A stretch of DNA of 51,295 nucleotides from Acidimicrobiia bacterium. Its GTDB lineage: Bacteria; Actinomycetota; Acidimicrobiia; Spongiisociales; JAENVV01. This document shows, one piece after another, positions 1 to 10,768 of this stretch. The stretch's first letter is position 1. Each line of letters begins with the position of its first letter. The notes below the pieces were generated by a model. That model searched no databases. It was not told the DNA's origin and was given only the letters and a program-made list of their open reading frames with translations. Where the stretch lies: assembly GCA_029881355.1 (NCBI GenBank), contig JAOUMT010000001.1, positions 1-51,295 of the forward strand, read 5' to 3'. A program made the translations under genes and the position numbers.

Positions 1-950
1 AGGAACCTTCTCCCCGGACCCTCCACCACCGCTGGGGAGACCGACACTGGCGCTCCACGCCGTTCCGCTTGGGAAACCGACCCGCACGTATCTCAAGTTG
101 GTTGCTGGTTGAGAAAACGTCCAAATCCGATGTCGTGTGACCGCCGATAAGCCCGACGTGGCCGTCTGGTGGGAACGAACCCCTCTATGGGGACTGGCCT
201 GGCCAGTCCGTCGGCAGAACCGCCCACCGTACTGCAATGTGACCGAAGGTCACGCTACCTCCGAACTACGGTCACAGGAACCTTCTCCCCGGACCCTCCA
301 CCACCGCTGGGGAGACCGACACTGGCGCTCCACGCCGTTCCGCTTGGGAAACCGACCCGCACGTATCTCAAGTTGGTTGCTGGTTGAGAAAACATCCAAA
401 TCCGATGTCGTGTGACCGCCGATAAGCCCAACGTGGCCGTCTGACGAGACCCGGCCCCTCTACGGGGACTGGCCTGGCCAGTCCGTCGGCAGAACCGCCC
501 ACCGTACTGCAATGTGACCGCAGGTCACGCTACCTCCGACCTCCGGGCACAGGAACCTTATCCCGGACCCTCCACTACGTTCCGCTGGGGAGACCGACGC
601 CGCGCCCCACTGTGTCCGGTGGGGATACCGACGAGTGTTTGTTGGTCCTTGGTCGCTGCATCGTTGAGAAAGCGTCCGAATCCTATGTGGCCTGACCCAC
701 AATCCGGGCGTGCCGGTGCTGGGAACACGAGGAGTGGCCATGCCAGTCCCCCCACAGAACGGTGCACCGTTCGGCACGGTGACGAAAGGCAACGCACGAT
801 CCTTCCCGGACCATCCACTTCGTTCCGCTGGGGAGACCGACACTGGCGTTCCACTACGCTCCGCTGGGGAAACCGGTCCAGGAACTGCATAGTTCGTTTG
901 TTGCTGAGTCGTTGAGAAAGCGTCCGAATCTCAGACCGTGACCGGCCCGA
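1..950. repeat. Tandem array of a ~275-nt non-coding unit: unit 1 = 1-275, unit 2 = 276-550, unit 3 = 551-795 (diverged, ~245 nt), unit 4 = 796-~950 (partial)
   Basis: Direct reading: 1-275 and 276-550 align without indels with 14 mismatches (first 118 nt identical). Units 3-4 keep the blocks CCGGACC(C/A)TCCAC, CCGCTGGGGAGACCGAC and GTTGAGAAARCRTCCRAATC. A 275-nt period is not a multiple of 3, and track ORFs here lie in many frames on both strands, so this is not a protein repeat. The array touches the window edge and may continue upstream. Confidence 0.9.
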
Positions 951-1099
951 TGCGAGCCTGCGAGCAGCCATTACAATTTCGCTCGTGAAAACGCGCTATC
1001 TCTTGTTTTGGTCGATCGGCCTGCTCGTAGCAATTCTCGCCGCGTCGGCGATCTGGTTCATTACGGATCCGTTCGGATTCCTCAACGCCACCTAGCCGT

Positions 1100-2713
1100 T
1101 CAGGACCGAACGACGACGGCTCCGTGGGGCTCGATCGTCCAGGAGCCGTCGGCATAGCCATCCCGCAGGTCGCTTGAGACCAGCACCTCGCCCGTGACTG
1201 TTACGGCTACTGATGAAGCTGCAAAGCTGACTGCCACAACCACTCGCTCATCGGCGGCGAGCCGCTCGTACATGAGCACCTCATCGTTGCCTGATTCGAG
1301 CTCGTGATAATCACCAACCGTGAGCGCTTCGGATGATCTGCGGACAGCCAACAGCCGCCGGTAGAGATTCAACACCGAGCCGGGATCAGCTAGCTCGGTC
1401 TCGACGTTTCGATTCTCGAGATCCGGCCCCATCGGCAGCCAGGTGTCGGTCGACGTTGAGAATCCGCCGTCTGGGGTCCATTGCATCGGTGTCCGGCAGC
1501 CATCGCGACTCACCCCTTCAAGGTTCACACCCCACGGATCGAGGCCCAGATCAACGCCCTCGAGCATACCGAGTTCGTCGCCGTAATACATCGTCACGGT
1601 CCCTCGCAGCGTGAGCAACAGGACGGCCAGGCGCCGGATCGAGTCCTCGCCATAGCGTTTGGCCAGACGCGGCTCGTCGTGATTTCCAATCACATAGTTT
1701 GGCCAGGCACCGTCCGGTAGAACGGCCTCCTGGCCGGCAATGGCTGCCCGCAAGGAAGCCGGATCGGTCGCCTGGTTGAGCAGAGCAAAATTGAAGGGCT
1801 GATGCATCTCGTCAAGGTTGGCCCCAAAGTACGAAGCCCATTCTTCAAGGTCGACGATGTGCGCCTCGCCAATCGTGTACCGATCGTCGTACTCATCAAC
1901 CACAGCCCGAAGCCGCTGGTAAAGCGGATGGATGTCTAGGTGAGCTTTCGAGTGAATGTGATTGAGCGTCTCGAACTCCCCCATCGGCTTGAAGTGATCC
2001 GATGGAGCGTCTGGATCGGCCGGAGGATTATCTCGCATCTCCGGGTCCTTGACGATGTAGTGGGCAACGTCGATTCGGAACCCGTCGACGCCCCGGTCCA
2101 ACCAGAACCGAAGCACGTCGAACATGGCAGCCTCGACATCGGGGTTGCGCCAGTTCAAATCCGGCTGTTCCTTGAGGAATGTGTGCAGGTAGTACTGGCC
2201 GGTCGGTTCGTGCCACTCCCACGCCTTGCCGCCGAAAATGCTCAGCCAGTTGTTGGGTTCACTTCCATCTGGCTTGGGGTCTCTCCAGACATACCAATCG
2301 CGTTTGTCATTGTCTCGCGAACTGGCCGACTCGAGAAACCAAGGGTGCTGATCAGACGAGTGATTCGGAACGAAGTCCACGATCACTCGAATGCCTACCG
2401 CGTGAAGATCTGCAACAAGGTGATCGAAGTCCTCGATTGTCCCGTACTCGGGGGCGACATCCACGTAGTCGGAAACGTCGTAGCCGAAGTCTTTTTGCGG
2501 AGACGGATAGAACGGTGAGAGCCAGATCGCATCGATCCCGAGTACGTCTGACAAGTACGGCAGCTTCTGGCGAATGCCCTCCAGGTCGCCGATCCCGTTG
2601 CCAGTCGAATCGGCGAACGACCGGGGATAGATCTGATAAACGACCCCGCGTTCCCACCATTTTCGATCATGCTGCATGGCCCGAAATGGTAGCGCTTCCA
2701 ACTTGAGCCGCAT
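1100..2713 (-). CDS. GH13 alpha-glucosidase / oligo-1,6-glucosidase family protein
   Basis: 537-aa ORF with GH13 conserved regions: WWERGVVYQIYPRSFADSTGNGIGDL, VDFVPNHSS, VDGFRIDVAHYI, TIGEAHI, VIGNHDEPR. The start could be 2713 or the second Met at 2677. Confidence 0.9.
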   Translation of the reverse strand: MRLKLEALPFRAMQHDRKWWERGVVYQIYPRSFADSTGNGIGDLEGIRQKLPYLSDVLGIDAIWLSPFYPSPQKDFGYDVSDYVDVAPEYGTIEDFDHLVADLHAVGIRVIVDFVPNHSSDQHPWFLESASSRDNDKRDWYVWRDPKPDGSEPNNWLSIFGGKAWEWHEPTGQYYLHTFLKEQPDLNWRNPDVEAAMFDVLRFWLDRGVDGFRIDVAHYIVKDPEMRDNPPADPDAPSDHFKPMGEFETLNHIHSKAHLDIHPLYQRLRAVVDEYDDRYTIGEAHIVDLEEWASYFGANLDEMHQPFNFALLNQATDPASLRAAIAGQEAVLPDGAWPNYVIGNHDEPRLAKRYGEDSIRRLAVLLLTLRGTVTMYYGDELGMLEGVDLGLDPWGVNLEGVSRDGCRTPMQWTPDGGFSTSTDTWLPMGPDLENRNVETELADPGSVLNLYRRLLAVRRSSEALTVGDYHELESGNDEVLMYERLAADERVVVAVSFAASSVAVTVTGEVLVSSDLRDGYADGSWTIEPHGAVVVRS

Positions 2714-2798: not shown

Positions 2799-5700
2799 AT
2801 GAGCAACGACCCCAACATCCTTCGGCCGCCGCTTTGGTATAAGGATGCGGTCATCTATGAGGTTCATGTTCGAGCGTTCGCCGATTCCAACGACGACGGG
2901 ATCGGCGACTTCGGCGGCCTCACCTCTCGACTCGACTATCTGAGCCATCTCGGGGTTGACACGATATGGCTCTTACCGTTCTACCCGTCGCCGTTGCGAG
3001 ACGACGGATATGACATTGCCGAGTATTTCGATGTTCATCCGAGCTACGGGTCGCTCGATGACTTCACGACATTTCTCGGTGCCGCGCATGCCCGAAACAT
3101 GAGGGTCGTTACCGAGCTGGTCGTCAACCACACCTCTGATCAGCACCCATGGTTCCAGAGGGCTCGTCGTGCCGCGCCAGGAACGCCCGAACGCGACTTC
3201 TACGTTTGGAGCGATACGCCGGATCGATTTGAGGAAGTCCGCATCATTTTCTCGGACACCGAAACATCGAATTGGGCATGGGACCCGGTCGCCGGCGCTT
3301 ATTACTGGCACCGTTTCTTCTCCCACCAACCGGACCTCAACTACGACAACCCACTCGTGCGCGAGGCCATCATCGACGTGTTTCGATTCTGGCTCGACCT
3401 TGGGGTCGACGGTCTGCGCCTCGATGCAGTCCCCTATCTGTTTGAGCGGGATGGAACAAACGGAGAAAACCTCCCCGAAACCCACGAGGAGCTGAAACGA
3501 ATCCGGGCTTTCGTTGACGAAAACTACGAAAACCGGATGCTGCTGGCCGAGGCCAACCAATGGCCAGAGGACTCCGCCGCCTACTTCGGTGACGGCGATG
3601 AATGCCACATGGCGTTCCACTTCCCGTTGATGCCCCGCCTCTTCCTGGCGCTTCAGCTAGAGAGCCGCCTCCCCATCATTGACATCCTTGAGCAAACTCC
3701 GGAGATCCCCTACGACGCCCAGTGGGCGATCTTTCTGCGCAACCATGACGAACTAACCCTCGAGATGGTGTCTGAGGAAGAGCGGGACCTCCTGTGGAGG
3801 GCCTACTCCCCGGACCGGCGAGCACGGTTGAACCTGGGTATCAGGAGAAGACTCGCCCCTCTCCTAGAAAATGATCGTCGCCGCATCGAGCTGTTGTTCA
3901 GTCTCCTGCTTTCCCTGCCGGGCACGCCGGTTATCTATTACGGGGACGAAATCGGGATGGGCGACAACGTGTTTCTCGCCGACCGTGACGGGGTCCGGAC
4001 TCCGATGCAGTGGAGCAATGACCGCAATGCCGGCTTTTCGAGAGCCAACGCGCAGTCCCTCTACCTACCAGTCGTCGTCGATCCACAATTCCACTACGAG
4101 ACGGTGAACGTCGAGGCCCAACAGGCCAACCCGAATTCGCTGCTCTCATGGGTACGTCTCATGATCCGGCACCGCCAGCGGCACCCGGTTTTCGGGCGCG
4201 GAAGCATCGAGTTCTTGTCACCCGACAACGATCAGGTGTTGGCCTATCTGCGCGACAGCGAAGACCAGACGTTGCTCGTCGTTGCCAACCTCAGTCGCCA
4301 CTCGCAGTTCGTCGAACTCGATCTCGCCCGATTGGCCGGACAACGCCCGACGGAAATGCTCGGCCGGACCGAGTTTCCGATTATCGCCGAGACGCCCTAC
4401 CCACTTTCGGTGGGACCCTATGGGTTTTATTGGTTCACGATCGCCTCTCCTGACTCGCCGACTCAGGAGAGGCGGGACGCGCTCGAGATCACCGGACCGC
4501 TCGAAGGGGCGATGGCCGGTGAAGGAGCCCTGGCCGACGCGGTTGGCAGATTCATGTCGAACCAGTCCTGGTATCAGGGTCGACCTCCTCGACGGTCGCA
4601 GACGACTGTCGTCGACCTGGTGCCTCTCACCCCCGGCGAGCAAGACGCCGCCTTCTGGGTTGCACTGGTCGCGGTCGGCCACGACTCCGGTTCGCAGGAT
4701 CTGTACGTTCAGACCATCGGCATCTCGTTCGAACCAGATGCCCAACTCCCCGCCTCGGCCATCATCTCGGCAGTACATCGTGACGGAACCGACGGGTTCG
4801 TCTTCGATGGTTTGGCCGATCCGCGTGGACGCACGGTACTCCTCGACCTGGTGCTCGCCGGAGACACCCTGCTTGGCATCGCAGGTTCATTGTCCGGCAA
4901 CCTGGCGCCGACCGCTGCCGATGTCACTTCCGATTCCCCGGTTGATTCGACTGTCCATACCAACGATCGCGGCGAGACCTACATCGATTATGCCAATGGG
5001 CTTACGATCAAACTCTTCCATCGAATCGAACCAGGCACGAACCCGGATCTGGAACTCCGTAGATTCCTCACGGAACGGACGGCTTTTGAGGGGGTCGCCG
5101 ACACCTATGGCGCTCTCGAATACCTGTCCGGCGAAAGCCATACGGTCGGCATCCTCCAGCAATCCTTCACGCAAACTCCGAGCGCCTGGAGTGTGTTCGA
5201 GCAACACTGTCACAGCTGGCTGGCGACCGTACCTGACAGAATGCCACCTGCCGATCCGCCCCCGATATGGAGCCGCTCCGACGACGCCGCCGGATTCTCG
5301 CTCCCGAGCGTCGACCTTCTCCAACCGGCACTGGATCTGGCGACCGAACTCGGCTCGATGACCGCCCGCCTCCACCTGGCGCTCGGGTCTTTCAGCGAGG
5401 ACCCGGACCTCGGTACCGAGCCTTTCACACAGCACTACCAACACTCGTTGTATCAATCGCTGCGAGCTGGAATCCGTCGCGAGTTCCGGGCTATGCGCCG
5501 ACTGAAAACATCCGCCGGTCCGGCAATCGAGGAAGCGATTGACGACCTACTGCGGGCCGAACGTGAATGCCTCGACTGGCTCGACGCAATTAGGAAAAAG
5601 CGGATCAAGGGAGCACGCATTCGGCTTCATGGCGATTACCGACTCGACGAAGTGTTCCTCGTCGATGGGGAATTCGTCATCGAGGACCTCTCGGGCGATC

Positions 5701-6074
5701 ACTCGCGCCCGATGAGCGAGCGACGGCTGCGCGGTTCGGGGCTGGGCGACATAGCTCAGATGTTGCGATCGTTCGAATACGTGGGATCGTCGTGTGCCCT
5801 CGACAGATCGCGGGCGGACCAGGCCTGGTCGGTTTGGTGGTCGCAGCTGGTCGGAAACGCGTTCGTGACCAGATATTTGACCGATCTCGACGGCTCATTG
5901 TTGCTGCCCGACTCATCGGAGGCGATCGACGACCTTCTCAGAGCCTTCTTGATGTCGCGAGCACTTCGCGAACTTCATTGGGAGCTCCAGAATCGCCAGG
6001 AATGGGCAAGTATTCCTCTGGCAGAACTACGCCGGATGCTCGAACAGCGACCGTGGTTTGTCGATCGTGATTGA
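2799..6074 (+). CDS. treS: Trehalose synthase / maltokinase fusion protein (TreS-Mak/Pep2)
   Basis: 1091-aa ORF. The N-terminal ~550 aa carry GH13 TreS motifs (WYKDAVIYEVHVRAFADSNDDGIGDF, VVNHTSDQHPWF, GVDGLRLDAVPYL, LLAEANQWPED, FLRNHDELTLEM). The C-terminal ~480 aa are maltokinase-like (RLHGDYRLDEVFL, VIEDLSGD..RPMSERR, GDIAQMLRSFEY). Confidence 0.9.
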   Translation: MSNDPNILRPPLWYKDAVIYEVHVRAFADSNDDGIGDFGGLTSRLDYLSHLGVDTIWLLPFYPSPLRDDGYDIAEYFDVHPSYGSLDDFTTFLGAAHARNMRVVTELVVNHTSDQHPWFQRARRAAPGTPERDFYVWSDTPDRFEEVRIIFSDTETSNWAWDPVAGAYYWHRFFSHQPDLNYDNPLVREAIIDVFRFWLDLGVDGLRLDAVPYLFERDGTNGENLPETHEELKRIRAFVDENYENRMLLAEANQWPEDSAAYFGDGDECHMAFHFPLMPRLFLALQLESRLPIIDILEQTPEIPYDAQWAIFLRNHDELTLEMVSEEERDLLWRAYSPDRRARLNLGIRRRLAPLLENDRRRIELLFSLLLSLPGTPVIYYGDEIGMGDNVFLADRDGVRTPMQWSNDRNAGFSRANAQSLYLPVVVDPQFHYETVNVEAQQANPNSLLSWVRLMIRHRQRHPVFGRGSIEFLSPDNDQVLAYLRDSEDQTLLVVANLSRHSQFVELDLARLAGQRPTEMLGRTEFPIIAETPYPLSVGPYGFYWFTIASPDSPTQERRDALEITGPLEGAMAGEGALADAVGRFMSNQSWYQGRPPRRSQTTVVDLVPLTPGEQDAAFWVALVAVGHDSGSQDLYVQTIGISFEPDAQLPASAIISAVHRDGTDGFVFDGLADPRGRTVLLDLVLAGDTLLGIAGSLSGNLAPTAADVTSDSPVDSTVHTNDRGETYIDYANGLTIKLFHRIEPGTNPDLELRRFLTERTAFEGVADTYGALEYLSGESHTVGILQQSFTQTPSAWSVFEQHCHSWLATVPDRMPPADPPPIWSRSDDAAGFSLPSVDLLQPALDLATELGSMTARLHLALGSFSEDPDLGTEPFTQHYQHSLYQSLRAGIRREFRAMRRLKTSAGPAIEEAIDDLLRAERECLDWLDAIRKKRIKGARIRLHGDYRLDEVFLVDGEFVIEDLSGDHSRPMSERRLRGSGLGDIAQMLRSFEYVGSSCALDRSRADQAWSVWWSQLVGNAFVTRYLTDLDGSLLLPDSSEAIDDLLRAFLMSRALRELHWELQNRQEWASIPLAELRRMLEQRPWFVDRD

Positions 6075-6084
6075 ACCTGAGCGC

Positions 6085-6828
6085 TTATTCCCCGGTTCGT
6101 AATCGTCGCTCCGACCCGAGTATTTCAAGCGCTTCCGCAACCTGTTTTGGATCGCCCACCCGGTGGGTGGCCCGGGTACCCCCAGGGCCAACTTTCACTC
6201 CTACATCCGGCAAATCCAAGATGGCAAATACGTCCTCGTCCGTCACGTCGTCCCCGAAAAACACGACCCGCTCGAAGTCGTCCCGCTTGCGCATATGGCT
6301 GATGGCGGAACCCTTGTCACCGTGACCGACCATGATCTCGACCACCTTCTTGCCCTCAAGGACGCGAGCGTCGAACCTGGCACCAACGGTCCGGGCGGCG
6401 TCAGCCGCCTGCTCGGGCTGGGCTACGTGGCGGTAGTGGAATGCGGCTCCGAGTGGCTTGGGTTCAACCGTCGCACCCTCGAACTCGTCGGCAATCCCTT
6501 TAAGTTCCTTCGTGATCTCTCTGACGGTTCGAGATGCAACGGGATCATTACCCGACAATCGGACACCGTGATCGCCGATGAGTTCGATGTCCGCGTGCGT
6601 ACCGACAAAACCGAGCAGCGTATCGACAGATCTACCCGAAATGATCACCGATCCGACACCGGCGTATCGCGCCAGATCAGCCAGGGCATCGACAGCCGGG
6701 CCGTACGGAAACGCCGCCGCCGGATCTCCCACAATCGGCGCCAACGTACCGTCATAGTCGCAGGCCACGAGCAGCCGGGAGGCCCGGGCCGCCCCACGCA
6801 GTGCGGCGACGAGCGGAGCGTCGATCAA
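6085..6828 (-). CDS. otsB: Trehalose-6-phosphate phosphatase
   Basis: 247-aa HAD-family ORF with CDYDGTLAPIV (motif I) and FFGDDVTDEDVF (motif IV). Its start overlaps the otsA stop by 4 nt. Confidence 0.85.
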   Translation of the reverse strand: MIDAPLVAALRGAARASRLLVACDYDGTLAPIVGDPAAAFPYGPAVDALADLARYAGVGSVIISGRSVDTLLGFVGTHADIELIGDHGVRLSGNDPVASRTVREITKELKGIADEFEGATVEPKPLGAAFHYRHVAQPEQAADAARTVGARFDARVLEGKKVVEIMVGHGDKGSAISHMRKRDDFERVVFFGDDVTDEDVFAILDLPDVGVKVGPGGTRATHRVGDPKQVAEALEILGSERRLRTGE

Positions 6829-8192
6829 AGGGCGTCCAGACTGGCCAGGCAGTCACGCGCCCAGTCGAATACATCCGCTTTTCGCACGACGTTTCGGAGC
6901 TTCCTCATACGTTGACGCTGCTCGGCTTCGGGCATTTTTGTTGCATATGAGAGGGTCTCCACGACTGCGTTGACATCGTACGGATTCACAATCAAGGCGG
7001 CCCGGAGCTGCTCGGCGGCGCCGGCAAACTCACTAAGGACAAGCACGCCGTCATTGCCGGTTCGGCTGGCCGCGTATTCCTTGGCGACGAGATTCATCCC
7101 ATCGCGTAGAGGAGTCACCAACATCACATCAGCCGCCACGTAATACGCGATGACCTCTTCCAACGGGAGCGTTCGATACAGGTATGACACGGGTGCCCAG
7201 CCTGGTTCCCCATAGGCACCATTGATCCGCCCGACCGCCTGCTCGATGTCGATTCGCAACTGCTGGTAGGCCGGAACCTGTTCGCGGCTCGGAACCGCCA
7301 CCTGGACGAATGCGTACTGGCGCCGATCGGTTGGCGAGCCCTTGAGAAGGCTTTCGAAGGCCTTCAATCGCAGATCAATGCCCTTGGTGTAATCAAGCCG
7401 GTCCATCCCGAGAATGACATGGTCCGGGTCACCCAGCTCCGCGCGGATTTGGGCAGCTCGGACTTGGACGGCCGCCGACCCGGCCAGCTGTTCAAATTCG
7501 GCGGTATCGATGGCGATGGGGGCGGACTGCAAGTGCACCGACCTTCCGTTCCAAACCAAATCACGACGTCCCACTGCTTCGGCGCCGGCCAGTCGGCGCG
7601 CCGCCCGAGCGAAGTTGTCGGCACTTTGTCGAGTTTGGAAAGCGATCACATCGGCATCGAGCAAGCCCTCGATGATCTGACGCCGCCAGGGCAAACGGGC
7701 AAACACCTCGATTGGCGGAAACGGGATATGCAGATAAAAGCCGATCGTGGCGTCCGGAACAATCGCTCGAAGCATGCCCGGCACGAGCTGCAACTGATAG
7801 TCCTGTACCCAGGCGATATCACCCGGACCGACGACACTCGCGGTTGCTTCGGCGTAGCGCTGGTTCACCTCGACGTAAGACCTCCACGTGTGCCGGTGGA
7901 ATTCTGGTGCAACGATGCCGTCGTGGTAGAGCGGCCATAGCGTCCCGTTACAGAACCCGTAGTAGAAGTCGTCGACCTCCGCCTCATCGAGAGTCACCGG
8001 TGTCTGGTCGATGCCGTCGTGGTGGAATGGTGCGGGATTGAACCCGGGAATTCCCGGCCATCCAACCCAGGCACCCTGCGCATTTTGCAGGACCGGTCGA
8101 AGCGCTCGCACCAGTCCCCCAGGACTGATAGACCACTCCTCGCCATCCCAAGCCACCGGGAGCCGATTGGCGACAACAATTATCCGCTTCAG
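6825..8192 (-). CDS. otsA: Alpha,alpha-trehalose-phosphate synthase (GT20)
   Basis: GT20 motifs: IGFYLHIPFPPIEVF, LGMDRLDYTKGI, VTPLRDGMNLVAKEY. The track ORF starts at GTG 8156, but the conserved N-terminal strand (K)RIIVVANRLP is encoded in frame just upstream with no ATG/GTG/TTG. I extend to CTG 8190-8192, which has GAGGGA 5 nt upstream; the 5' end is therefore uncertain. Confidence 0.85.
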   Translation of the reverse strand: MKRIIVVANRLPVAWDGEEWSISPGGLVRALRPVLQNAQGAWVGWPGIPGFNPAPFHHDGIDQTPVTLDEAEVDDFYYGFCNGTLWPLYHDGIVAPEFHRHTWRSYVEVNQRYAEATASVVGPGDIAWVQDYQLQLVPGMLRAIVPDATIGFYLHIPFPPIEVFARLPWRRQIIEGLLDADVIAFQTRQSADNFARAARRLAGAEAVGRRDLVWNGRSVHLQSAPIAIDTAEFEQLAGSAAVQVRAAQIRAELGDPDHVILGMDRLDYTKGIDLRLKAFESLLKGSPTDRRQYAFVQVAVPSREQVPAYQQLRIDIEQAVGRINGAYGEPGWAPVSYLYRTLPLEEVIAYYVAADVMLVTPLRDGMNLVAKEYAASRTGNDGVLVLSEFAGAAEQLRAALIVNPYDVNAVVETLSYATKMPEAEQRQRMRKLRNVVRKADVFDWARDCLASLDAL

Positions 8193-8255
8193 AGGTTCCC
8201 TCTTTGTCCGACCTCGACCGAGACTAGTGCGCCTCGGCGACCCTCACGCCGTTGC

Positions 8256-9002
8256 CTACCACTCCCATGCGGGTGCTCCGTCGATCATCTCCCAGCCAGA
8301 TCGACACTCGGCGATCCGGGCTGCGTCGACCCCATGCGACCACGACCGCGGCGCCGATCGGTTCGGCCTGACCAGAGAGAATGGACTGGATGACACTTGC
8401 CCTTCTGGCTTCGGCACTCCTGCCGCCCATTCCAGCTCGAGGGATGTCCCCAGCTGGCCCAAGGCTCGTTTGGGTCGTTTGACCAGGCTCTCATACGTAA
8501 CGGTCAGCAAGCCGTCCCCCAACATCGTCCTGGCCGTGACGGCCACCGCGGCCTGATAAGCGCCATGCCATACCCAGAACGACGGGTTCGCAGCCTCGAT
8601 TCGGGCCAGCACGTCACGAGCCGGCGATTCCGGGAAACGACTCGACACGACCATCTGTGGCCCCCACACCCATCCGAGCTGAACATGGGACCGGCAAACA
8701 GCCACCGGATGACGCTCCAACAACACCACCCGGGCGTCGAGAGCAGCTCCGATCGACGCCGCCAACAACGGAGTCACTTCCTTGACGACCAGCCGACCGT
8801 CCTTTGCCGCAATCTGTTGAACAAGATCGTTAAAGGTCGGCGAGGCCACGGATTCGTGGCTGAACGGATCCAGGCCGGCAGCCAGCAGCCCTTGCGTGAT
8901 CGGTTCACGCTCGTACGTAACCCCATCAGCCATGCCGAGAACCCACCCCACCCAACTTGAACCACTCCTCGGCAAGGAAGTCAGCAGGATCGATCGTGAC
9001 AC
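8256..9002 (-). CDS. Sulfotransferase family protein (PAPS-dependent type)
   Basis: 248-aa ORF with a 5'-PSB-like loop LPRSGSSWVG near the N-terminus and a 3'-PB-like R-x7-S (RHPVAVCRS). The start abuts the arfB stop with 0-nt spacing. Substrate unknown. Confidence 0.7.
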   Translation of the reverse strand: MSRSILLTSLPRSGSSWVGWVLGMADGVTYEREPITQGLLAAGLDPFSHESVASPTFNDLVQQIAAKDGRLVVKEVTPLLAASIGAALDARVVLLERHPVAVCRSHVQLGWVWGPQMVVSSRFPESPARDVLARIEAANPSFWVWHGAYQAAVAVTARTMLGDGLLTVTYESLVKRPKRALGQLGTSLELEWAAGVPKPEGQVSSSPFSLVRPNRSAPRSWSHGVDAARIAECRSGWEMIDGAPAWEW

Positions 9003-9422
9003 CTAATCGGCCTCGGGTTTCTGACGATTCCGCTTTCGTTGCGACCTGGCACGCTTGTCGGAGAGCCGGGCTTCGTGGGCACGCCTCGGAATCCGGGTCG
9101 GTTTTCGGGTCGGACGGGGCCGGAGCGCTTCGGCGATGGCATCGGCCAACCGTTTGCGAGCCATCTGACGGTTACGCCACTGAGACCGGCTTTCGTCGAC
9201 CGTAAACGTCAAAACACCGTCATTGTGCGCCAGTTCGAGGTCGAGCGTTTGTTTCTCGGTCTCGGTGAATGCCGCGGACTCAAGAACGTCAAACGAAAGA
9301 ATCGCCCGCGTATTCGAGCGGTTGGCGTGCTGGCCACCGGGCCCCCCAGAGGGACCGAAGGTCCAGCTGAGCTCACTCTCCGGAATCACATGTTTGGGGT
9401 CCACCCGCAAGTCGTCGTTCAC
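9003..9422 (-). CDS. arfB: Alternative ribosome-rescue factor ArfB (peptidyl-tRNA hydrolase, YaeJ type)
   Basis: 139-aa ORF with the GGQ release-factor motif (SGGPGGQHANRSNT) and a basic C-terminal tail (RKPTRIPRRAHEARLSDKRARSQRKRNRQK). Confidence 0.85.
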   Translation of the reverse strand: MNDDLRVDPKHVIPESELSWTFGPSGGPGGQHANRSNTRAILSFDVLESAAFTETEKQTLDLELAHNDGVLTFTVDESRSQWRNRQMARKRLADAIAEALRPRPTRKPTRIPRRAHEARLSDKRARSQRKRNRQKPEAD

Positions 9423-10768
9423 GCGAACAAGTTTCGCACAGCCTGCCGTCGGACTTTGCCAAGCGACGTGCGGGGCAGCGACTCGACGGATCGCCAGGCC
9501 TTGGGAATCTTGTACCCGGCCAGAGTTGCGCGTAACTGATCGGATAACTCGTCGAAAGACACCTCGCCTGATAGCTCAACCGCTGCGGCGACAACTTCAC
9601 CCCACGTCACGTCCGGCAGGCCGACGACGGCGGCAGCGCGCACCAAATCAAGGGATTCGAGGGCTTCTTTGACCTCGCCGGCCATAACGTTCTCGCCGCC
9701 GCTGATAATGACGTCCGACGTGCGGCCGGTGATGCGGAAGCCACCGTCGGCATACTCTCCGAGATCGCCTGTAATGAACCAGCCGTCATCGGAGTGGGCC
9801 GGAGCGTCGAGATACGTGCCCGTAACCATCGGGCCCCGCACCTGGATCTCGTTGCCATTCACGAGACGCATACTGGCTCCCGGAATCGGCACAACCAACC
9901 GGCGCGGAGGCTCCCCGACCACCGAAGTGGCAATTTGGGAGCCCGCTTCGGTCATCCCGTAGGTGGAGAGCACCCCCAAGCCGCGGGCATACGCCCGATC
10001 AAGCAGGGATTGTCCGGCGGGTCCGCCTCCCACCAAGACCGCCCGCACGTCATAGGGTCGCTCGTCCAGGTCAAGGACGGCGGCCAGCTGGGTAGCGACG
10101 AACGACGCCAGGGTTACCTGGTCGAGTCCGGCGGCGACCTCCTCCGGTTCGAACCGGTCGTGCAGGAGGACCGCCGATCGGCGAGCGGCGCATCTGATCA
10201 GTATTGCGGCACCGCCGACATGGAACATCGGCAGTACGGCCAGCCACACGTCCTCAGAGGTGTGCCCGAGATGTCGAGCGGACGCGGCCTGGCCGGCATC
10301 GAGATTGCCCCAGCTGAGGACGACGCCTCGCCCCCGCCCGTCCGACCCCGAGGTAAAAACGATCAGGCACTCGCTGGTTGGTTCGTGTAGACGGCCTCGA
10401 TGGGGCTGGCCCGCCAATTCAGGATGGATCGAAGGCACCGACCACTCTCTCCCAAGTGGATCAACGATGAACGAAGCCGCAGACTCGGCAAGTTGATCGA
10501 CAACTTCGGGTTCGGTGAGTCGGGTATTCACGAGGACACAGGCCGCCCCGGCCCGCCAGATCGCAAAGATAGCCACGATCGTCGACAGGTCATTGTTGGC
10601 CCACAACGCAACGCGGTCTCCACCACTCACGCCGAAGTCGAGCAACCCGCCCGCCATGCGCGCCGCCCGATCATCGACCTCAGCGAACGAATACGTCGCT
10701 CCGTCGATCATAAGAAAGGTGCGATCAGGGTCGACAGCCGCTGCCGCAGATAACCAGTCCTCAATCAC
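9419..10768 (-). CDS. menE: AMP-dependent ligase, probable o-succinylbenzoate-CoA ligase
   Basis: 449-aa adenylate-forming enzyme (degenerate P-loop FTSGSDGRGRGV, YGMTE, GDLG..DGGFRITGRTSD, C-terminal GKV). The MenE assignment rests mainly on the divergent neighbour menB and the rest of the men cluster. Confidence 0.7.
   Translation of the reverse strand: MIEDWLSAAAAVDPDRTFLMIDGATYSFAEVDDRAARMAGGLLDFGVSGGDRVALWANNDLSTIVAIFAIWRAGAACVLVNTRLTEPEVVDQLAESAASFIVDPLGREWSVPSIHPELAGQPHRGRLHEPTSECLIVFTSGSDGRGRGVVLSWGNLDAGQAASARHLGHTSEDVWLAVLPMFHVGGAAILIRCAARRSAVLLHDRFEPEEVAAGLDQVTLASFVATQLAAVLDLDERPYDVRAVLVGGGPAGQSLLDRAYARGLGVLSTYGMTEAGSQIATSVVGEPPRRLVVPIPGASMRLVNGNEIQVRGPMVTGTYLDAPAHSDDGWFITGDLGEYADGGFRITGRTSDVIISGGENVMAGEVKEALESLDLVRAAAVVGLPDVTWGEVVAAAVELSGEVSFDELSDQLRATLAGYKIPKAWRSVESLPRTSLGKVRRQAVRNLFA

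Follow-up and report, generated by a model that had tools for sequence, protein, structure and literature searches.

What is the kilobase of tandem repeats that opens a contig of an Acidimicrobiia bacterium, and why does it stand where it does? We analyzed positions 1 to 51,295 of contig JAOUMT010000001.1 (the window, 51,295 nucleotides [nt] as a whole; its numbering is used throughout). Window positions 1 to 958 hold 3.6 head-to-tail copies of a non-coding unit, and the array reaches the left edge of the window, position 1. We give roughly 55% to a reading in which this array is a composite minisatellite, specific to its lineage, that flanks a REP13E12-type nuclease gene on the 5′ side, carries recognition sites acting at the level of DNA, and is driven by recombination. 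The descriptive part of this reading is much firmer than its mechanism.

The original prediction for this locus described at least 3.6 copies of a unit of ∼275 nt, the first two differing at 14 positions without indels and sharing their first 118 nt. Tandem Repeats Finder (period 275, 2.2 copies, 93% matches, score 1041, span 1 to 598) and a base-by-base comparison of 1 to 275 with 276 to 550 (14 mismatches, 0 indels, first mismatch at 119, hence 118 identical nt) bear this out. The mix of near-identical and old, block-conserved copies that it remarked upon is equally real: the first two units are 95% identical, and an alignment and a module map show that the third and fourth are far more diverged and retain discrete blocks. 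What did not stand is the single 275-nt unit. This unit is not one entity; it is a mosaic of shorter modules, H/H′, E, I, and T, which are recombined differently in other arrays (periods of 186 to 275 nt) and are also found singly elsewhere (loci L009 and L013). The units and modules of the window are the following.

1 to 275, no strand: unit U1, with modules H, H′, E, a variable segment, I, and a tail; it continues past the left edge.
276 to 550, no strand: unit U2, 95% identical to U1.
551 to 795, no strand: unit U3, an older diverged copy with H, H′, E, and I (alignment and module map).
796 to ∼958, no strand: unit U4, truncated after E, with H, H′, and E only; the distal end of the array.
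1 to 45, also 276 to 320, 552 to 598, and 800 to 841, plus strand: module H (∼49 nt), AGGAACCTTCTCCCCGGAC.CTCCAC..CCGCTGGGGAGACCGAC; nhmmer E values of 1e-11 to 1e-14.
51 to 81, also 326 to 356, 606 to 632, and 847 to 875, plus strand: module H′, a 36-nt sub-repeat with the 3′ half of H only, CTCCAC-N4-6-TCCGCTGGGGAnACCGAC.
97 to 161, also 372 to 436, 649 to 715, and 896 to 958, plus strand: module E (∼65 nt), GTTGCTG(CATC)GTTGAGAA.GCGTCCGAATCCGATGTCGTGTGACC...GGACGTGCCG.
190 to 255, also 465 to 530 and 731 to 795, plus strand: module I (∼66 nt), three consecutive hairpins, GGACTGGC/GCCAGTCC, GCAGAACGGC/GCCGTTCTGC, and GTGACC/GGTCAC.

Module T is a short joint (GGGAACGAGCCCCTCTACCTCCGACC...) that in other arrays occupies the variable stretch between E and I. 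The H consensus can also be written AGGAACCTTCTCCCCGGAC.CTCCAC..TTCCGCTGGGGAGACCGAC; its 18-nt core, TCCGCTGGGGAGACCGAC, occurs eight times in the array at a spacing of 36 nt, always on the plus strand, and H′ consists of one or two sub-repeats 36 nt 3′ of H. In short form, E begins GCTGCATCGTTGAGAAGGCGTCCGAATCC or reads GTTGCTGCATCGTTGAGAAGGCGTCCGAATCCGATGTCGTGTGACC...GGACGTGCCG. The hairpins of I are three palindromes with stems of 6 to 10 bp and variable loops. Conserved blocks of 20 and 21 nt occur four times each in the array and not once in dinucleotide shuffles or in the rest of the window, and nhmmer profiles of the modules found no further copies in the window outside the array. In all related arrays, too, E is the last module before the flank. 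Of the 14 differences between U1 and U2, seven are packed into 11 nt (169 to 179; 444 to 454 in U2), a patch that resembles, judging by its sequence, a short stretch of gene conversion whose donor would be a unit not seen here. Diversification of this patch in the manner of diversity-generating retroelements was considered and rejected; the changes are not adenine specific, and no reverse transcriptase gene was seen.

Every short-read contig breaks within the array, as a misassembly or a repeat-protein gene might make it do. The same array is nevertheless present in three other, independent assemblies of the organism, from ENA (L001), Logan (L002), and JGI (L003), at 99.3 to 99.9% identity without gaps, and a long-read contig (L011) from a metagenome-assembled genome (MAG) spans a complete homologous array. 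All five contigs with the same GH13 gene stop inside the array or just before it, which is why the window begins within it. A repeat-protein gene is ruled out by unit periods of 275, 245, 186, and 184 nt, by indels between copies (e.g., of 1 and 4 nt) that are not multiples of 3 and shift the frame, and by missing homologues: the minus-strand open reading frame (ORF) translation of the array has no protein homologue, and the plus-strand translation has only three weak matches, to long multi-stretch proteins, among 1.84 billion proteins. An artefact or a repeat protein is thus very nearly out of the question. The array is non-coding, as had been supposed; that it is the only long non-coding stretch in the window is roughly right: the other gaps of a crude ORF map hold ordinary ORFs.

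How widely is the module family distributed? A strict pattern of H plus E had no match in 185,579 species genomes. In the same genomes, a relaxed H-core pattern had true matches in one MAG only, uncultured Acidimicrobiia bacterium MFD03551.bin.2.103, with three matches at two loci, L011 and L013 (divergent copies would escape the pattern); two further hits of this pattern arose by chance. A metagenome scan gave two true relatives, L008 and L009, and three chance matches. The pattern matches in L006, L007, L010, L012, and L014 were rejected as chance hits to unrelated high-GC DNA, mostly coding. Phages and plasmids showed no similarity by blastn, and viral contigs had no pattern match. Searching for the unit in related genomes and metagenomes, as had been advised, therefore returned relatives only among close Acidimicrobiia. 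As far as sequence searches tell, the family is rare and lineage specific, being limited to one narrow, uncultured clade within the Acidimicrobiia.

Within this clade, modules are found at five loci, three of them directly 5′ of genes encoding a DUF222 and an HNH domain, and keep the same orientation throughout. In both L011 and L008, a conserved spacer of ∼150 nt borders the array, together with the start of a gene whose product (∼365 amino acids [aa]) combines DUF222 (PF02720) with HNH (PF01844). L011 is a complete four-unit array with a 186-nt period, two units that are 98% alike, and a nested 34-nt sub-array; L008, from a San Francisco Bay-type sample, is the same PNPOx locus with another unit composition. 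Arrays at two loci, PNPOx (L011 and L008) and GH13 (L020), adjoin one and the same DUF222 5′ end and spacer and are oriented alike. A gene with PF02720 and PF01844 lies next to the repeat in L011, L008, L020, L024, and L027. The last of these is the leuB locus, where a paralogue (P0132, 49% identical) from the same samples as the window organism is preceded by I (60 bits), an H-like stretch, and E, in the order and orientation of the other loci. E-like motifs, TCGCTGCAT..TTGAGAA, are also seen 5′ of DUF222 genes that are more distantly related: L021 has three and L023 has one, with L027 as a further case. In L021 the three motifs are ∼130 to 235 nt apart, and a (GTG)8 microsatellite occupies positions 1415 to 1439, 5′ of the DUF222 gene. 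The modules are not derived from the DUF222 gene or its downstream flank, with which they share no similarity.

L009 and L013, at unrelated loci, hold single T-H copies followed by related short sub-repeats. Two or three such sub-repeats, GCTGGGG(A)GACCGACCTCCGT.ATC.CAACCCCC, follow T-H in L013 (7700 to 7880) and L009 (1980 to 2045) and constitute a partner module other than those of the arrays. L009 also has a duplicated motif, GGCTTGC.T.CTCG.AGAGGAGAAC, 5′ of T.

DUF222-HNH genes, known as the 13E12 repeat, are widespread in Actinobacteria and induced by DNA damage, and Mycobacterium tuberculosis has 19 DUF222 proteins. To our knowledge, no function has been found for the REP13E12 family since 1999, and it has no known partner. 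The REP13E12 loci of M. tuberculosis rank with its most frequent hotspots of gene conversion and inversion and “lack defined biological function” (PMC13061034; PMC13157036). Several DUF222 paralogues coexist in the same samples, most close homologues being on contigs of 1.5 to 4 kb. The ORF of L011 shifts frame after ∼193 codons (at ∼7779), either through a nanopore indel or because it is a pseudogene. An AlphaFold model of the nuclease built with 113 homologues (pLDDT 88, pTM 0.81) has PDB neighbors for the C-terminal HNH domain only, and these are of the McrA type (ScoMcrA and EcoKMcrA); the helical DUF222 domain has no structural match in the PDB, and the whole protein has no sequence match there. 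The NCBIfam IscB model touches the HNH motif only (24.9 bits against a cutoff of 175), and a PADLOC scan gave only a weak REase_II match on the HNH region. Nothing in these results points to an RNA-guided architecture, and DNA binding by the DUF222 domain would be compatible with them.

Every DUF222-HNH gene seen is preceded by TGTCAC(N2)-N8-TAT(N2)T, 6 to 7 nt 5′ of the ATG (L011, 7160 to 7200; also L020, L021, L022, L023, L025, L027, and L030). We take this motif to match the RecA-NDp/PafBC DNA damage promoter of mycobacteria, the consensus of which Gamulin reportedly gave in 2004 as tTGTCRgtg-N8-TAnnnT. The RecA-NDp/PafBC motif and its regulator have been described (PMC6789036; PMC8223512). 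The upstream sequences suggest that the DNA damage regulon feature of 13E12 genes extends to Acidimicrobiia.

Does the nuclease gene need the array? The DUF222 gene of L025, at the GH13 locus, has no unit upstream, nor has the leuB-locus orthologue from another genome (L030), which has only 78 nt of upstream sequence. Judged from these sequences, the nuclease gene can do without the array. DUF222 genes and their flanks have diverged at similar rates at each locus (73 to 77% versus 76 to 80%), which, together with the missing units in orthologues, indicates that DUF222 genes are long-term residents and the modules a later, lineage-specific, dispensable addition to their 5′ flank. In our reading, the array is not an independent gene for an RNA or a protein. 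Its units turn over fast. Besides the young copies (95% identity for U1 and U2, 98% for units 1 and 2 of L011), unit number and content vary between strains, both at the window's locus (window versus L005 and versus L020) and at the PNPOx locus (L008 versus L011). The last unit of the L005 strain lacks E, and the units of L020 cannot be placed in one-to-one order with those of the window. With its head-to-tail units of strain-variable number and content, the array is a minisatellite, or variable-number tandem repeat (VNTR).

Against this turnover stands the conservation of some modules. Across genomes, module identity is 88 to 100% for H, 69 to 91% for I, and 66 to 97% for E, whereas coding DNA has 83% identity for the window and L020 and 87% for L008 and L011; the unique junction beside the array has diverged so far that the window and L020 cannot be aligned there by eye. 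H must therefore be under constraint or have spread recently. The earlier suggestion that parts of the unit are under selection gains support here, because the H blocks are conserved beyond neutral expectation. These figures also bear on an alternative, that the array is a functionless satellite or VNTR of decayed fragments of a non-autonomous mobile element, similar to a miniature inverted-repeat transposable element or to REP, which landed near DUF222 genes. Fast gain and loss of units between strains, the dispensability of the array, the dispersed copies at unrelated loci (L009 and L013), and hairpin mismatches that go uncompensated would all fit such a history. It does not predict that H is better conserved between species than coding DNA or that module order and orientation are alike 5′ of two DUF222 clades. 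Copy number per genome also appears low (no further copies in the window; three H-core matches at two loci in one MAG), and no convincing terminal inverted repeats surround the DUF222 block, where only 9- to 24-nt matches at chance level were found; an inverted pair, GGCGCCTTCTCAA/TTGAGAAGGGGCC, has an E value of 0.37 and is not claimed. We consider a purely neutral origin unlikely.

Could the units instead encode RNA? A structured-RNA gene array was one of the three candidates first put forward, and it receives little support. Covariance models of Rfam, run with cmscan (E ≤ 10) over window positions 1 to 1300, returned only Sphinx_2 at 15 bits (gathering score 34), and on five related loci only RAGATH-32 at 20 bits (gathering score 41.8); the absence of a recognizable Rfam family, asserted at the outset, is thereby upheld. 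ARAGORN returned neither a tRNA nor a tmRNA for the array. Whole units are no more stable than shuffled sequences on either strand (fold z-scores of +0.02, −0.62, −0.10, and +0.20), and alifold on six E-to-I segments gave a positive covariation term, i.e., a penalty, on both strands. In the hairpins of I, 91% of cells are paired, compared with 24 to 40% when the partner columns are slid, the stems being invariant and the loops variable; covariation is 0.030 versus 0.027 in shuffles. The E helix, ACGUCC/GGACGU, scores 0.258 versus 0.207, and 52 of 500 shuffles score as high. Because the sample is small and closely related, these covariation values are weak negative evidence on structured RNA. 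One-arm changes in the H hairpin (U3, U4, and unit 1 of L008) are uncompensated, showing that the primary sequence of H is conserved and its structure is not. Of the three initial candidates, the other two, a protein-binding array or a satellite, fit best.

One RNA proposal is that each unit is transcribed on the plus strand, from near E to the hairpins of I, into a small RNA that would regulate, neutralize, or guide the DUF222-HNH nuclease. By analogy, the layout recalls the ToxI repeats 5′ of ToxN and the HEARO/omega-RNA 5′ of IscB: an array in fixed orientation 5′ of an HNH nuclease gene, with conserved blocks alternating with more variable segments and with the three stable hairpins of I. 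One pair of the E helix runs U-A/U·G/C-G, of which the G·U form works only on the plus strand, and by sequence reading weak, variable −10-like hexamers (CATAGT, CATGTT, and CACTCT) lie ∼15 to 20 nt 5′ of E. A consensus scan of the array found no σ70-like promoter and no intrinsic terminator, whereas true TANNNT boxes are obvious at the DUF222 genes and at a small ORF beside the array. Promoters within E (σ70, extracytoplasmic function [ECF] type GGAAC-N17-CGTT, or RecA-NDp-like) were rejected as degenerate matches lacking the invariant −10 T. Together with the fold, covariation, and Rfam results (Rfam covers HEARO), the proposal has to contend with the lack of complementarity between the array and DUF222 genes or their downstream flanks, with the nuclease's own promoter lying between array and gene, and with an N-terminal domain unlike those of known RNA-guided proteins, the only match being the McrA-type HNH. 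Intact DUF222 genes without any unit (L025 and L030) further imply that an antitoxin or guide is not essential. A regulatory or guide RNA is accordingly an improbable role for the unit.

A different role is suggested by gene order. The DUF222 gene is co-oriented with its upstream gene at all four distinct sites (GH13, PNPOx, leuB, and patatin), and where units are present, they lie exactly between the two genes. Clusters of GC-rich hairpins could keep transcription of a housekeeping gene from running on into the nuclease gene, which is potentially toxic and damage inducible and has its own leaderless RecA-NDp-like promoter. The three strong hairpins of I would suit an insulator or terminator, but neither the consensus scan nor sequence reading found a U-tract after any hairpin of the array in either orientation. 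Such a role would also leave the conservation of H/H′ and E and the single copies of L009 and L013 unexplained, and the orthologues L025 and L030 do without units. We rate it as quite unlikely.

We return, then, to the composite minisatellite with DNA-level sites. In this reading, the conserved H/H′ cores, with their 36-nt phasing, and the three perfect palindromes of I would act as DNA, being recognized or bound by a sequence-specific protein. For this role the adjacent DUF222-HNH nuclease is the most economical candidate, with binding and cleavage as predicted activities; alternatively, a host factor might insulate the damage-inducible nuclease gene from the co-oriented gene upstream. Breaks and recombination at such loci would let the array grow and shrink by out-of-register repair, and the same events could copy the flank between DUF222 paralogues. 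A stronger version, in which the modules are a dedicated cis- or RNA partner of DUF222-HNH, either sites that it recognizes and nicks or unit-length RNAs that restrain or direct it, strikes us as quite unlikely.

Several observations weigh against the minisatellite reading as a whole. The window itself contains no DUF222 gene by tblastn, and adjacency rests on L020, a sister strain with 83% nucleotide identity, and on L024. L009 has a single T-H copy and no DUF222 gene in the sequence covered, and the sequence of L013 covers no upstream side. Of the three DUF222-adjacent loci, L027 came to light through a DUF222 search, and this is an ascertainment bias. The module census is small (∼14 copies of E, 13 of H, and 8 of I). 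Concerted evolution within genomes cannot by itself account for the conservation of H between species, for which selection or recent transfer is needed. Finally, the pair series in the E helix hints at a constraint at the RNA level.

How did the locus come to look as it does? Orthologous loci were obtained through the GH13 protein and through DUF222 homologues. To the right of the array, the window continues as follows.

959 to 984, plus strand: unique junction of 26 nt; −10 box TACAAT at 972 to 977, 7 nt before the GTG of the small ORF, with the same spacing in L015, L018, L020, and L025.
985 to 1095, plus strand: 36-aa hydrophobic ORF, VKTRYLLFWSIGLLVAILAASAIWFITDPFGFLNAT; outside the array, at the right-hand limit of the inserted block.
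1100 to 2713, minus strand: GH13 alpha-glucosidase gene, reading toward the array, in the orientation expected of the DUF222-HNH gene past the left edge.

The relatives show the locus in these states.

L018/L019, most distant relative (GH13 73% aa identity), empty: GH13, small ORF, and lpdA, with 237 nt between genes.
L015 to L017 (GH13 85% aa identity), empty: GH13, small ORF, 25 nt, GNAT, and lpdA.
L025, nuclease gene and no array: GH13, small ORF, ∼160 nt, DUF222-HNH, 53 nt, GNAT, and lpdA.
L020 (90% aa identity; 83% nt identity over 5 kb), array and nuclease gene: GH13, small ORF, four-unit array, spacer, DUF222 start, and contig end.
L024 (same sample as the L005 strain variant), far side of the locus: DUF222, GNAT, and lpdA.

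From these states, the minus strand of the window would read GH13, small ORF (antisense), array, ∼150-nt spacer, RecA-NDp-like promoter, DUF222-HNH, GNAT (antisense), and the lpdA-sucB-lipoate genes. The earlier statement that no transposase, integrase, or reverse transcriptase is adjacent appears to hold inside the window and reflects the window's edge, since the arrays of sister contigs abut a DUF222-HNH gene. Pfam families of transposases and of Cas proteins were absent from the called genes of the fetched loci. No target-site duplication was found; the empty (L015) and occupied (L025) junctions were compared by eye only, and no search aimed at such duplications was made. Decayed I- and T-like remnants in the orientation of the upstream arrays lie 3′ of DUF222 at the GH13 locus in L026 (930 to 1310), and the nuclease gene may thus sit within a repeat tract, with repeats on both sides.

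The genes around the site have features of their own. The 36-aa ORF is kept in every relative of the locus (L015, L018, L020, and L025), with TACAAT or TACCAT exactly 7 nt 5′ of its GTG; it matches no NCBIfam family and, from this pattern, looks like a real leaderless gene for a small membrane protein. A 131-aa GNAT acetyltransferase gene lies between the small ORF and lpdA in L015 to L017 (11690 to 12130), L024 (1296 to 1691), and L025 (2672 to 3067) and is absent from L018/L019; at the empty site, just 25 nt separate its stop codon from the small ORF's GTG. On the other side of the GH13 gene, window positions 2799 to 10768 (also in L001 and L015) encode a TreS-maltokinase fusion (1091 aa), OtsB, and OtsA, followed by a sulfotransferase-like gene, an RF-1 domain protein, and an AMP-binding ligase; L018 lacks the TreS/OtsAB block.

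What follows from these findings? The array explains why every short-read assembly of the organism breaks at this point, and the lpdA-sucB-lipoate operon is therefore expected on whichever contig carries the sequence beyond the nuclease gene. As for the array, it is probably a by-product or a cis-element. The H core and the three palindromes provide specific candidate recognition sequences for a gene family that is both enigmatic and of medical relevance. If the modules were a dedicated nuclease partner, this clade would reveal, in an amplified state, the second component that is missing from the REP13E12 family; if they are a by-product only, they would offer a clean example of recombination-prone selfish loci building minisatellites in streamlined genomes.

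How does the array compare with known systems? REP13E12 is a repeat of ∼1.4 kb that includes its ORF, and it is not known to have an upstream tandem array of 185- to 275-nt mosaic units. The M. tuberculosis loci resemble ours in the neighboring gene with PF02720 and PF01844 (in sister contigs), in being multicopy, and in the RecA-NDp-like promoter; they differ in lineage at the phylum level, and the array modules of the Acidimicrobiia have no similarity to the DUF222 genes of this group. CRISPR repeats are 23 to 55 nt long and have unique spacers. Our array shares with CRISPR and with iterons the direct repeats and the partly variable intervening sequence, but its conserved part is ∼130 nt, its unit is 245 to 275 nt, and its “spacers” are homologous between units; compared with iterons, the units are far longer, and there are no rep genes in the sequence covering the loci. 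The ToxI array of type III toxin-antitoxin systems is likewise a direct-repeat array immediately 5′ of a nuclease gene and, as the locus is laid out, co-oriented with it, and the 36-nt sub-period is matched here. ToxI, however, is 36 nt × 5.5 and cotranscribed with an endoRNase of the ToxN fold, whereas here the HNH nuclease is of the DNA type, a separate promoter lies between array and gene, the units are 5 to 7 times longer, and the array is dispensable. HEARO/omega-RNA of IscB is also a conserved non-coding sequence 5′ of an HNH-containing ORF; our element is tandem and has no Rfam match, and its neighbor matches IscB in HNH only and has no RuvC domain.

The mosaics of REP/BIME and REPtrons in Proteobacteria come closer, with palindromic units and other motifs in variable intergenic mosaics, a flanking gene of the nuclease type, and single copies elsewhere. 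Unlike REP/BIME, our modules apparently occupy few loci rather than hundreds, form direct rather than alternating inverted units, and have a much longer period; unlike REPtrons, they flank a DUF222-HNH gene, with no RAYT/HUH gene seen. MIRU-VNTR of mycobacteria and BOX of pneumococci share the intergenic tandem or modular repeats and the strain-variable copy number and module content. MIRU units, however, are 40 to 100 bp long, lie inside operons, and contain small overlapping ORFs, and BOX is a highly dispersed boxA-boxB(n)-boxC element; neither has sequence similarity to our units of 185 to 275 nt with nested 36-nt sub-repeats. The array thus represents a new repeat family with a repeated, oriented association with DUF222-HNH genes, whose closest analogues are REP/BIME-REPtrons, MIRU/BOX, and REP13E12.

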